Position numbers and translations under genes: made by a program. Of a stretch of DNA of 64,000 nt, positions 52,669 to 54,948 are shown piece after piece. How positions within the stretch are numbered: the first letter of the stretch is position 1; every line of letters begins with the position of its first letter. The stretch comes from an uncultured Pseudomonadota bacterium (lineage in GTDB: Bacteria; Pseudomonadota; Alphaproteobacteria; RF32; CAG-239), in contig CASEQD010000002.1 in the NCBI GenBank assembly GCA_949289935.1, positions 1,847-65,846 on the forward strand, read 5' to 3'. The notes under the pieces were generated by a model. The model ran no database searches. It was not told where the DNA came from and was given only the letters and a program-made list of their open reading frames with translations.

Positions 52669-54948
52669 ATGGAAAGTTTGTATGATAAAAAAATAAAAGC
52701 CCGCAAGTGGGGACGCTGGTTCAAAGTATTGTGGATTATACTTTGTTCGGTTGTGTATTTTTGGGTTGCCGGGCTGATTTCTCTGATTGTTTCCCAATAT
52801 GTCAGGTATGGTTTTTCGACCGGAAGCACCCATGAAATTTATAATTTTTTGACAAAGGTCAGAGAAACTCCGGAAATTGTTTTTAGTGCGTATGGCATGT
52901 GGTTTGAAAAACTGCTGACGGCAGAGAAGTATCATCCCGCATTGTTTATTCCTCTGTCTGTACCGGTTCTGTTTTTGTTTATTGTTTTTTTCGGCTACAT
53001 GCGCAATCCTCATTCTTTTAACTTATGGTATCTTCTTCATAATCATTTTGCTACTTTTCAAGATGTGGTGAAAATGAGAATCCTGGGCGGAAATTTGATG
53101 TCGTTGGGAAAATTTGAAGGAAAGTCTTTGGGAATTAATAAAGTTGCTTCTTTGTTCGGATGGGGCGCTTCAGAGCTCGGAAAAACATCAAGCATAGCTA
53201 TTCCGTCGATTTTGGAGAGTAATAATTCCAGTGTGGCGGCAATAGATTGTACGGGAGATTTGTTTGCTTATACTTCAGGTCATAGACGAAGCTTGGGCGA
53301 AGTTTTTTATTTTAACTGGAATCTTACGGATGATCCTGAAAAAGGGGAATTTTGGCCGCGGTGGAATCCTCTTTCTCCGGAAAATCTGCCGCGGGATGCC
53401 GATAAACGAGAGGTTTATCTGAAAAGGCTGGCAGCCCACTTGCAGCCTCAATATGAACATGAAGACTGGCAGTGTTTGTCGGCGTTGGCTGCGGAGAGTG
53501 TCCTGATCTTTTTTGTCAGCAAAACAGAGCAGGCCGCCGCCAATGATTATCTGCTCGGACGGTTGCTGAAAAACGGCGGGTTTGAGACGGAAGACGAATC
53601 CATTTTACGCAGTTATTATTCAGCCATGCCGACAAAATTTTCCGAGCCGGCGTGCAAACTGCTTGATTTGGGACAAATGACGGCGGAAAATTATTTTCCC
53701 GTCGGAAGCTGGGGCGGCATTCCGTCATTGTGGAAAGGTCGTGAGCTTTGTTTATCCATGATTGCCGACAGTCTTGTTCAAAAGTATCTTTTGGAACAAG
53801 GTAATATTTCCGGCAGATGGAAAAAAATTATTAATATTTTCAGGGAAGAAGCTTTTCTTTTTGGTTATCCGGCGGAAATTTTGCTTCGGTTTGAAAAGCT
53901 GCTGGCGCTTGATAATGAAACCTGCGATGTTTTGTTTGCCGGTTTGGCGGAAGTTTTTTCCGTTTTCAGAAAAAGCAATATCAGAGAAAGGACATCTTCC
54001 AATGATTATTGTTTGAAGTACGGGCGGGGAATGAAAGATGCCGACGGCAATCGGCGCGTTACGACGACTTATTTGATTGCAGACAACAGAGAATCGTGTT
54101 TTATGAGCAGAATGATGGCGGATATGTTGATTGAACGTAATTTAGAAAAGCATAAGTCAGCATACAGAAATCCGATTTTGTTTGTAATGGATGATTTGGA
54201 AAGGCTGCCGAAGTTTGATTCTCTTTCCAGGGGAGTTATGTCGGGATATAAGACTAATGCGGCATTTTTGTTGTTGACCGATAGGCTGAAAGGCCTTAAT
54301 GAAATTTATGGCAAAGAAGGCGTGGAAAACATTATCAGCGGGTGTACTTATAAGCTGGTTTTTGCCGATAATAATGTTGATTTAAGCCGGCAGTTTTTGG
54401 AAATGGCCGTTTATGGGACGAAATCCGTGCAAATTCCTGCCGTTGCCACGGGAGCGTTTATGAAAGTGAAGCAGGGAATTGCCGACGCTTATTATTATCG
54501 GAAAATTGCCGATGATTTGGTTTCTGTTCATTCGCACAAAAAAATAAACAAGGGAGAGCATTTGCTTTTGGTGGAAGGTTTTTATAATCTGCCGGTTAAA
54601 GTGGATGCTCAGAGTTTTAATCAAAATGTGCGTTTGAAAATGCTGGCGGAGAAGGATCCGGCGTATTATTTGAGCGAAAGACTGCGAAAGCAGCGGAAGT
54701 TTCAGGATGAAAAGGTTCCTTCTTTTGATGATGTTTTGGCTGAAAGCAGAGAGGTTCAGGTTTCTTCCGTGCCGGATGTTTCGTTTTCAGGGGTTGCCCG
54801 GGGACGAATTGAGCTTGAAGAGAAACTGAATGAAGAAATTGAGAAAGCTGAAAAAATTGCCGCCAATCGCCCGGCTTTCGGACAAAGAGAACCAACCGGC
54901 GAATCGACAGGCAGGGAAATGGATTTTTGGGAAAAACGAACGGGATGA
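52669..54948 (+). CDS. divergent VirD4/TraG-like type IV coupling protein (FtsK/HerA-superfamily ATPase)
   Basis: Two N-terminal TM helices. GWGASELGKTSSIAIPSILESNNSSVAAIDCTGDLFAYTSGHRRSLGEVFYFNW...PRWNPL parallels the VirD4 Walker-A to RWNPL block. ILFVMDDLERLPKF...NEIYGKEGVENIISGCTYKLVF parallels the Walker-B/TraG-D_C block. Confidence 0.55.
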   Translation: MESLYDKKIKARKWGRWFKVLWIILCSVVYFWVAGLISLIVSQYVRYGFSTGSTHEIYNFLTKVRETPEIVFSAYGMWFEKLLTAEKYHPALFIPLSVPVLFLFIVFFGYMRNPHSFNLWYLLHNHFATFQDVVKMRILGGNLMSLGKFEGKSLGINKVASLFGWGASELGKTSSIAIPSILESNNSSVAAIDCTGDLFAYTSGHRRSLGEVFYFNWNLTDDPEKGEFWPRWNPLSPENLPRDADKREVYLKRLAAHLQPQYEHEDWQCLSALAAESVLIFFVSKTEQAAANDYLLGRLLKNGGFETEDESILRSYYSAMPTKFSEPACKLLDLGQMTAENYFPVGSWGGIPSLWKGRELCLSMIADSLVQKYLLEQGNISGRWKKIINIFREEAFLFGYPAEILLRFEKLLALDNETCDVLFAGLAEVFSVFRKSNIRERTSSNDYCLKYGRGMKDADGNRRVTTTYLIADNRESCFMSRMMADMLIERNLEKHKSAYRNPILFVMDDLERLPKFDSLSRGVMSGYKTNAAFLLLTDRLKGLNEIYGKEGVENIISGCTYKLVFADNNVDLSRQFLEMAVYGTKSVQIPAVATGAFMKVKQGIADAYYYRKIADDLVSVHSHKKINKGEHLLLVEGFYNLPVKVDAQSFNQNVRLKMLAEKDPAYYLSERLRKQRKFQDEKVPSFDDVLAESREVQVSSVPDVSFSGVARGRIELEEKLNEEIEKAEKIAANRPAFGQREPTGESTGREMDFWEKRTG

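Follow-up and report, generated by a model that had tools for sequence, protein, structure and literature searches.

A divergent coupling-protein-like ATPase with a pentapeptide-repeat neighbour and a putative TolC-derived lipoprotein in uncultured gut Alphaproteobacteria

Introduction

What is known of type IV coupling proteins (T4CPs) concerns almost exclusively their gatekeeping in conjugation and in effector-secreting type IV machines. The 64,000-nt stretch analysed here, from contig CASEQD010000002.1 of an uncultured Pseudomonadota bacterium and called the window below, encodes a divergent T4CP-like ATPase immediately upstream of rarA. What is such an ATPase for, when its neighbours are housekeeping genes and no gene of a type IV secretion system (T4SS) adjoins it? 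Our preferred answer, to which we assign a probability of roughly 0.4, is that it serves as the ATPase of a vertically inherited, T4SS-independent envelope module of three genes, with a pentapeptide-repeat protein (PRP) as its client or partner. In this locus, a T4CP-derived ATPase is a core gene of common uncultured gut Alphaproteobacteria, and it is tied to a PRP and a putative TolC-derived lipoprotein with a SPOR-like domain, not to VirB.

Fold and motifs of the ATPase

The following features of the ATPase gene were delimited (aa, amino acid; ORF, open reading frame; TM, transmembrane; AF2, AlphaFold2).

52669-54948, + strand: divergent T4CP-like membrane NTPase, ORF of 759 aa (PF02534, PF10412 and PF12696 matches; AF2 model)
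52717-53004, + strand: N-terminal membrane domain, TM1 at aa 17-45 and TM2 at aa 88-112 (hydropathy, AF2 helices, conserved columns)
53164-53187, + strand: Walker A, GASELGKT, aa 166-173 (conserved alignment columns)
53359-53373, + strand: RWNPL motif, aa 231-235 (R, W, N and P invariant in 64/64)
53398-53991, + strand: enlarged all-alpha domain, aa ~244-441 (AF2 secondary structure; invariant columns)
54175-54195, + strand: Walker B, ILFVMDD, aa 503-509 (Asp where the canonical catalytic Glu is expected)

The first-pass annotation had described the layout of a T4CP, with two TM helices, a Walker A, a PRWNPL block and a Walker B, and every one of these elements was recovered. The two segments located by Kyte-Doolittle hydropathy (aa 17-45 and 88-112) coincide with long AF2 helices, and the periplasmic loop between them is modelled as two helices (aa ~51-84) with conserved P68, Y75 and W78. 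Of the Walker A residues, G166, G171 and K172 never vary, and 61 of the 64 aligned relatives have T173. The residues R231-W232-N233-P234 are identical in all 64, with the window protein reading PRWNPL at aa 230-235. The ts.sDF motif, the ..YG segment and an acidic C-terminal extension are further traits shared with VirD4, TraG, TrwB and Cagbeta.

All three T4CP families of Pfam scored above their gathering cut-offs, with 33.9 bits for PF10412 (cut-off 20.5), 23.6 for PF12696 (22) and 55.7 for PF02534 (20.1); the matches are partial, the best stretch covering profile positions 233-373 of 468. Because of the PF02534 score and the 66 full-length relatives returned by a word-indexed search (30-67% identity, none informatively named), homology to T4CPs lies far beyond chance. 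The distance is nevertheless large. Identity to solved T4CPs is only 10-14%, a sequence search of the PDB with the single protein gave no match, and the family profile matched only Cag5 there (E=0.011), starting in the all-alpha domain. All NCBIfam VirD4/TraG/TraD equivalogs were missed, the best scores being 37-39 bits against cut-offs of 250-730, and the first single-query match beyond the 66 relatives was a canonical VirD4 (P0067, E=5.7e-6). Since the next canonical T4CP is this remote, Cag5 is reached at E=0.011 only and one equivalog scores 37 against 681 bits, the family appears in these comparisons as a deep clade separate from canonical T4CPs.

The AF2 model, built on the 64 relatives, reached a pLDDT of 87.2 and a pTM of 0.80. 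Its best Foldseek match was Helicobacter pylori Cagbeta (8dol; E=3e-13, TM-target 0.63), and the TrwB entries 1e9s, 1e9r and 1gki gave TM-target values of 0.62-0.65 (E=9e-8 for 1e9s), with HerA hexamers and DotL ranking next. The predicted fold is that of a T4CP: a membrane anchor of two helices, the RecA-like domain that binds nucleotide, and the all-alpha domain, here enlarged.

The canonical residues had also been described as altered, which the family alignment bears out. The Walker B of the window protein reads ILFVMDDLERL. Of the 64 relatives, 60 have D at position 508 and 4 have E; at position 509, 60 have D, three have N and one has G. The whole family thus lacks the canonical catalytic Glu, and a D-D pair stands where T4CPs have D-E. 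The same D-D pair occurs in non-gut forms of ~1,000 aa (P0104, P0109 and P0114), and D-E is found in more distant representatives. The canonical vQS.sQL..YG segment has become (C/T)(N/D)S.L..YG in the gut clade, with the sensor Q changed to N or D; the distant relative L089 keeps TQNLFQL..YG.

The all-alpha domain is both larger and more strongly conserved than is usual for T4CPs. Its family-invariant surface residues are K285, Q288, A289, N292-D293-Y294, Y342-P344-G346-W348, W355 and D367, and an IRERTS.D motif lies at aa 438-446. As judged from the alignment, such heavy conservation suggests a conserved binding partner. The PADLOC defence models gave no match for this protein.

Distribution, synteny and selection

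A scan of one genome per species placed the ATPase family in at least 104 species-representative assemblies, all of them from uncultured Alphaproteobacteria of the gut; the hosts are human, deer, sheep, chicken and rabbit. The carriers include "Proteobacteria bacterium CAG:495", "uncultured Azospirillum sp. UMGS63" and Candidatus Scatocola faecigallinarum, the last placed by NCBI in Rhodospirillales; the group presumably corresponds to the GTDB order RF32. In a profile search of 1.84 billion representatives, 189 proteins scored below 1e-30.

Throughout the gut clade the gene is single-copy and syntenic. About 79 loci share the order truA(−), gfo(−), a ~600-aa protein (the lipoprotein described below), PRP, T4CP-like ATPase, rarA, rluC-like, asmA and atp12. 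The sole rearranged locus among them (L019, 3650-18836) carries an inversion in which the ATPase gene and rarA moved together, leaving the lipoprotein and PRP genes on the opposite strand. Identity to the window proteins is 81-93% for rarA, 73-91% for gfo, 29-68% for the ATPase, 27-65% for the ~600-aa protein and 43-59% for the PRP.

Ratios of nonsynonymous to synonymous divergence (dN/dS, omega) were computed by the Nei-Gojobori method on 34 moderately close genome pairs. The median was 0.086 for the ATPase (range 0.044-0.134), 0.081 for the PRP, 0.072 for the ~600-aa protein and 0.024 for rarA; many pairs approach dS saturation and they are not independent of one another, yet an omega well under 1 is robust. 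The trio evolves ~3-4 times faster than rarA, yet selection clearly maintains it. The ATPase, PRP and lipoprotein genes are core, vertically inherited and under purifying selection. Separately, within a given genome pair the ATPase gene often shows roughly double the synonymous divergence of neighbouring rarA, for which codon bias in rarA or local recombination could account.

These data bear directly on a reading that the first-pass annotation had left open, namely that the gene is a relic, for instance the decaying remnant of an integrated conjugative element. The altered catalytic residues and the truncated C-terminal tail of the window copy would fit decay. However, the ORFs are full-length in the at least 104 species, omega is 0.086, and the Walker A with its P-loop lysine is invariant across more than 100 species. 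The model is confident and compact, the context is housekeeping, and Pfam scans of the window ORFs found no integrase, relaxase or other mobile-element gene. The trio is kept by selection, which refutes the relic reading, and we leave it next to no probability.

One carrier falls outside this taxonomic range by its label. A 391-kb contig (L075, JAISVX010000001.1) deposited as 'Lactobacillaceae bacterium' holds the PRP gene, the ATPase gene and housekeeping neighbours, with no match to the lipoprotein. It is probably a mislabelled or misbinned metagenome-assembled genome (MAG).

Gene junctions and rarA

Two features define the downstream boundary of the ATPase gene.

54945-54948, + strand: ATGA, overlap of the ATPase stop codon with the rarA start codon (read directly)
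54945-56273, + strand: rarA/mgsA, a neighbour outside the module (MgsA_C, E=1.2e-57)

The overlap reported earlier was found as described: the stop codon TGA at 54946-54948 overlaps the rarA ATG at 54945-54947, and a second ATG lies at 54948. The translational coupling drawn from it did not hold across the clade. On first-start ORF calls, the gap from the ATPase gene to rarA has a median of 63 nt, and the −4 ATGA overlap occurs in 8 of 77 loci only. In seven species (L022, L024, L025, L035, L039, L040 and L086), insertions of 1.3-2.8 kb separate the two genes, and rarA is missing from the non-gut loci L089, L173 and L175.

The window overlap itself arises because the C-terminal tail of the ATPase is truncated. 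The window protein ends in ...MDFWEKRTG, inside a C-terminal DWWLxEDAF...NPF motif (54820-54948) that is present in 71 of 85 orthologues. Since the PRP/ATPase junction recurs in AT-rich non-gut relatives with no rarA nearby, the rarA overlap is a sub-clade accident. A functional link to rarA was accordingly rejected, given the loose gaps, the insertions, the missing rarA outside the gut clade and the tail truncation.

The upstream junction behaves differently. The gap from the PRP gene to the ATPase gene is 74 nt in the window, and its median is 5 nt; it is below 100 nt in 82 of 83 loci, and the genes overlap or abut (≤0) in 20 of the 83. The PRP gene is an obligate neighbour of the ATPase gene and often a translationally coupled one. 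The median from the ~600-aa protein to the PRP gene is 68.5 nt. No terminator-like site was found in the three intergenic junctions, and in a promoter and terminator scan of 49.3-56.5 kb the counts stayed inside the shuffled expectation.

The pentapeptide-repeat protein

The PRP gene and its C-terminal end occupy the following positions.

51428-52594, + strand: PRP, 388 aa (PF00805, E=4.5e-57; conserved layout)
52562-52591, + strand: basic, Arg-containing C-terminal end (LMHSRGSHER in the window)

PF00805 matched with 189.5 bits (cut-off 20.2) in five stretches. The protein, located 74 nt upstream as noted in the earlier annotation, does carry the charged, Lys/Glu-rich tail ascribed to it; 44% of the residues of the window tail are charged. 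The layout is conserved: SW.AVS, a short motif, stands at the N-terminus, and then come the first repeat block, a linker, the second repeat block, CIITPxQIAQALGR and the Lys/Glu-rich tail. The inter-block linker, LQALIEYLAKYYPHKLNL in the window and LGxEELQxLIEYLAKYYPHKLNL in its family form, is highly conserved and is common to the gut clade and the L089 PRP. No TM segment and no signal peptide were found in the protein.

The PRP is unevenly charged: per 100 aa, the first block has a net charge of −11 in the median (range −7 to −13), the tail one of +7. The last 10 residues are net positive in 83 of 84 orthologues, and RG[RKS], RxR or RR occurs within the last 12 residues in 67 of the 84, including L089, L173 and L175. 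Relatives end in ...RGRGR, RGRDGR, RDRSRD or SRGGNER; the window protein is weakly basic at this end (+1, SRGSHER).

A search with the non-repeat half of the PRP returned 281 matches, which are clade-specific and none of them characterised; the best 120 of these are orthologues of 360-420 aa labelled "pentapeptide repeat-containing" or "hypothetical". Like MfpA, Qnr and AlbG, the protein combines tandem pentapeptide repeats with a strongly acidic β-helix. Unlike them, it has an inter-block linker, a long Lys/Glu-rich tail and an Arg-rich C-terminus, and its genomic partner is a T4CP-like ATPase with no topoisomerase context. The Qnr and MfpA models stayed below their cut-offs (49.5 vs 240 bits and 44.5 vs 360 bits), as did the PipB model, by far. 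A relationship to DotG/IcmE was considered and rejected (NCBIfam, 46.9 vs 750 bits), the similarity being that of the repeats alone. PADLOC gave only a marginal match in the tail (E=0.0096).

The PRP gene lies directly 5' of the ATPase gene in 83 loci and also in L089, L173, L175 and L176. Of the earlier proposal that the PRP is a candidate substrate, the part concerning partnership gains from this junction, the tightest and most widely kept one of the locus, and the Arg-rich C-terminus is compatible with a substrate.

The TolC-derived lipoprotein

Upstream of the PRP gene lies a third conserved member of the module, a gene of 613 codons that the first-pass annotation had passed over.

49517-51358, + strand: putative lipoprotein derived from TolC-type outer-membrane factors (OMFs), with a C-terminal SPOR-like domain (longest ORF, 613 aa)
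51116-51355, + strand: SPOR-like domain, aa 534-613 (AF2 topology, weak Pfam matches, conserved motif)

The public gene call is shorter, with its start at M18 (nt 49568) and 596 aa. A lipobox-like motif is present in 78 of 85 orthologues, and its Cys is invariant. In the AF2 model (pLDDT 79.7), very long helical hairpins occur as two repeats (helices 127-184/189-223 and 331-385/391-429), and a C-terminal β-α-β-β-α-β domain follows. The top 36 Foldseek matches in the PDB were all OMFs of the TolC family (CusC, TolC, OprM, MtrE, CmeC and VceC), with E-values of merely 1e-3 to 5e-2. In hhalign, a profile of 18 orthologues matched an OEP-annotated 723-aa protein of L089 with a probability of 99.7% (E=6.7e-26, 568 columns), end to end and with the MQLGAY... 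domain included.

Pfam gave no match for the window protein, OEP and SPOR included. Among the 18 orthologues, weak matches were obtained to OEP in six (best E=8e-4) and to SPOR in nine (best E=5.9e-4). The β-α-β-β-α-β topology of a SPOR domain was modelled at aa 524-595 of P0068, and the motif MQLGaY..NA..W..L..YP..RL.i.S..G..LCn.LR..C.L is kept as far as L089. On the strength of these models and alignments, we read the 613-aa protein as a TolC-derived, SPOR-bearing lipoprotein. Its gene occupies the same position in ~78 gut loci and in L089, L175 and L176. PADLOC gave no match for it.

With NodT-type OMF lipoproteins (OprM, CusC and MtrE; PF02321), the protein shares the N-terminal lipobox, the two repeats of long coiled-coil hairpins and the MARAxKYN-type helix near the N-terminus; it is also homologous over its full length to an OEP-annotated protein. 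Unlike them, it carries the SPOR-like domain and lacks the Pfam OEP match in the window, and no RND, ABC or MFS pump or adaptor lies beside its gene in the gut clade. A further difference concerns the barrel. The stretch between the MARAxKYN helix and the LDY/F motif, which spans the first outer-membrane β-hairpin in TolC-type proteins, measures 76 aa in L089 and L175 and 44-46 aa in the gut clade (45 against 76, 31 aa fewer). In the gut clade this first region is modelled as a short helix, and the second keeps its length and is modelled as helical, in a monomer model from a shallow alignment. From that model, the outer-membrane barrel of the gut-clade protein is probably degenerate, a tentative reading.

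The SPOR-like domain allows a different account of the locus, in which the ATPase is a septal, FtsK-like DNA-handling enzyme, the lipoprotein directs the module to peptidoglycan of the division site, the acidic PRP gates or inhibits the DNA-binding channel as a DNA mimic and the link to rarA reflects chromosome processing. In its favour, the FtsK/HerA superfamily includes the T4CPs, and the Foldseek matches of the ATPase include HerA hexamers. The −11 per 100 aa of the PRP β-helix resembles that of the DNA-mimicking MfpA and Qnr, and rarA is adjacent across the gut clade and moved together with the ATPase gene in the L019 inversion. However, rarA adjacency is absent in L089, L173 and L175 and loose in the gut clade, the Qnr model reaches 49.5 of 240 bits, DNA binding is conjectural, and the TolC-derived helical barrel is left unexplained. 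We regard this septal role as distinctly unlikely.

Relatives outside the gut clade

The relatives outside the gut clade separate the trio from its surroundings. In L175 (29% GC), gfo(−) is followed by an OEP-like protein of 658 aa, the PRP, the ATPase and then ParA/HflKC/DegP/holC/ndk, and the flanks are the same in L089 (31% GC; beach-sand MAG GCA_002410125.1). The lipoprotein gene of both adjoins the same gfo gene as in the gut clade. L173 (36% GC) holds only the PRP and ATPase genes, 7 nt apart. These contexts make the PRP and the ATPase the invariant core. A TolC-like protein usually joins them as a third member, and proximity to rarA is specific to the gut clade.

It could be argued that the three genes are mere neighbours in a stable housekeeping order, with the ATPase having an independent and possibly non-catalytic membrane role. 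Clade-wide synteny covers the whole region, which starts with truA and gfo and runs on past rarA and rluC to asmA and atp12, so adjacency is not specific to the trio. The PRP/ATPase pair persists, however, where the other neighbours change (L173, L089 and L175), its junction is far tighter than the others, and the trio shares an elevated evolutionary rate that sets it apart from its neighbours. This makes chance neighbourhood very improbable in our estimate.

L089 (4706-8882) has three additional genes between those for the TolC-SPOR protein and the PRP; their products are a BSH_RND adaptor-like protein (223 aa), an HlyD-like protein (446 aa) and a Peptidase_M50-HlyD fusion (715 aa). That the module originally had them and the gut clade lost them was rejected as the default view, the sister L175 lacking them and no gut locus having a homologue. 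An HlyD/M50 system that was inserted there and shares the outer-membrane factor is the likelier explanation.

Two other sets of T4CP-like genes were met. A second gut/rumen lineage (L093-L172, e.g. L093, 5548-12214) has a 738-aa T4CP-like gene from the same broad family, with canonical D-E and Q..Q. Its neighbours include no PRP, TolC-like or VirB gene, and upstream lie genes for charged coiled-coil-like and small TM proteins. This lineage, which a metagenome pattern scan with a narrower alignment mostly recovered, is a side branch that says little about the trio. In L091 (2888-6963) and L092 (146-4221), the gene of an orphan D-E T4CP-like protein of 755 aa (P0123) stands ahead of genes for an unknown 393-aa protein and a lipoprotein of the LpoB family, with no T4SS genes nearby.

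Type IV secretion genes

The earlier observation that no other T4SS gene lies in the window stands. Pfam scans of all other sizeable window ORFs, down to E=0.05 for those without a match, found no T4SS family, and tblastn with a complete VirB2-VirB11 set found nothing in the 64-kb window, 79 genome loci or 80 metagenome loci. No VirB, Trb or Dot gene was present in the window or within 10 kb at ~79 gut-clade and 4 non-gut loci. The positive control P0067 behaved otherwise: this canonical VirD4 closes a complete virB2-virB11 operon on a plasmid-like contig.

The ATPase might still be the true coupling protein of a chromosomal T4SS encoded elsewhere, the PRP being an effector or an adaptor/chaperone and the lipoprotein unrelated or accessory. 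The rvh system of Rickettsiales sets a precedent for a core, vertically inherited and scattered chromosomal T4SS in Alphaproteobacteria. The T4CP fold and the intact Walker A agree with such a role, the conserved, positively charged, Arg-rich PRP C-terminus resembles VirB/D4 substrate signals, and the genomes of the non-gut relatives are very AT-rich (29-36% GC), a trait typical of host-associated lineages, which often keep T4SSs. However, known T4CP genes adjoin virB11 or Dtr genes, as P0067 does. RvhD4 adjoins rvhB8-B11 and is a canonical D-E T4CP, whereas no T4SS gene is linked to the ATPase gene at any inspected locus. The clade is also far from canonical T4CPs and carries the D-D Walker B, and a PRP with 43-59% identity and an omega of 0.08 is unusually conserved for an effector. 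We consider a scattered T4SS, the main rival to the envelope module, unlikely; if true, it would make the PRP a universally conserved effector or adaptor and point to an unnoticed secretion capacity in abundant gut commensals.

The ATPase is homologous to T4CPs, yet it is without the D-E Walker B, the linkage to T4SS or relaxase genes and the scores set by curated equivalog thresholds. Unlike them, it is core, chromosomal and vertically inherited, with a PRP and a TolC-like protein as neighbours.

Proposed mechanism

On the reading that we prefer, an ATPase working in a T4SS-independent envelope module, the protein would form hexamers at the inner membrane like TrwB and Cagβ, with the PRP serving it as a dedicated client or regulator. 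Recognition of the Arg-rich C-terminus and the acidic β-helix of the PRP may fall to the conserved all-α domain and the acidic-aromatic DWWLxEDAF tail of the ATPase. VirD4 reads positively charged C-terminal signals in the Agrobacterium VirB/D4 system, the TraD tail binds TraM, and CagZ binds the Cagβ all-α domain in 8DOL. NTP binding and hydrolysis, the latter probably slow owing to the D-D pair, would drive engagement or translocation of the PRP at the inner membrane. The lipoprotein would be lipid-anchored to the outer membrane and fixed to peptidoglycan by its SPOR-like domain, and could supply a periplasmic helical conduit or tether. The ancestral system was possibly a real exit duct, the non-gut lipoprotein having room for outer-membrane β-hairpins, and the gut-clade protein, with its first hairpin region 31 aa shorter, is perhaps a periplasmic scaffold only.

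A more ambitious version, which we hold to be doubtful, takes the trio as a T4SS-independent envelope translocation apparatus that predates the split between the gut and AT-rich lineages. It would consist of a T4CP-derived hexameric motor, a PRP client or gate and a TolC-derived conduit anchored to peptidoglycan.

The closest known parallel is the Cagbeta-CagZ pair of H. pylori (8DOL), Cagbeta being the best structural match and the pair giving a precedent for an adjacent-encoded cytoplasmic partner that controls a T4CP ATPase. Unlike the proteins discussed here, CagZ is not a PRP and Cagbeta acts within a complete Cag T4SS; the PRP interaction in our model is one that we infer. The literature search found no description of this T4CP-like clade or of a T4CP/PRP/TolC-SPOR association.

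Several points weigh against the envelope module. The T4SS survey covers 10 kb to either side of each locus and, in this genome, 64 kb, which leaves some probability to a T4SS encoded elsewhere. The conserved order extends to many unrelated housekeeping neighbours, and synteny alone does not make a functional unit; in L173, no TolC-like gene is adjacent. The ~35-aa periplasmic loop of the ATPase looks too short to reach a TolC-like tip without an adaptor, and the possible loss of the barrel in the gut-clade lipoprotein argues against secretion to the outside. The D-D pair (N or G at the second position in 4/64) may imply weak or no hydrolysis, and the window ATPase lacks the C-terminal motif invoked for PRP recognition.

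Should whole genomes prove T4SS-free, the trio would become a candidate envelope apparatus of a new kind, and a T4CP motor would be domesticable for another envelope function. In that case one of the many orphan PRPs would also gain its first genetic partner and hence a testable role.

Other features of the window

The remaining window ORFs with assignments are housekeeping genes, comprising gmk, lptF/G, rimP-nusA-infB-rbfA-truB-pnp, pth, ychF, leuS, lptE, holA, pta-ackA, carD, hslO, truA, rluC, asmA and ddl. Rfam and tRNA scans of the window returned nothing.

Some ORFs stood apart from this pattern. Two adjacent ORFs of 453 and 355 aa (28499-30929, − strand) and one of 391 aa (39376-40548, − strand) had no Pfam match even at E=0.05. 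Two unrelated-looking ORFs (11014-11775, + strand; 44111-44938, − strand) both weakly matched the Lcl C-terminal domain (E=2-3e-3). A 944-aa ORF (11837-16205, − strand) with only a C-terminal Trypsin_2 match adjoins a ComM/Mg-chelatase-like gene, and both sit in the sole GC-rich stretch of the window (12-16 kb, 49-52% vs ~44%).

Finally, GC skew was positive in every 2-kb bin from 1 to 64000, and the genes lie mostly on the + strand, as expected of a leading-strand segment without an internal origin or terminus.

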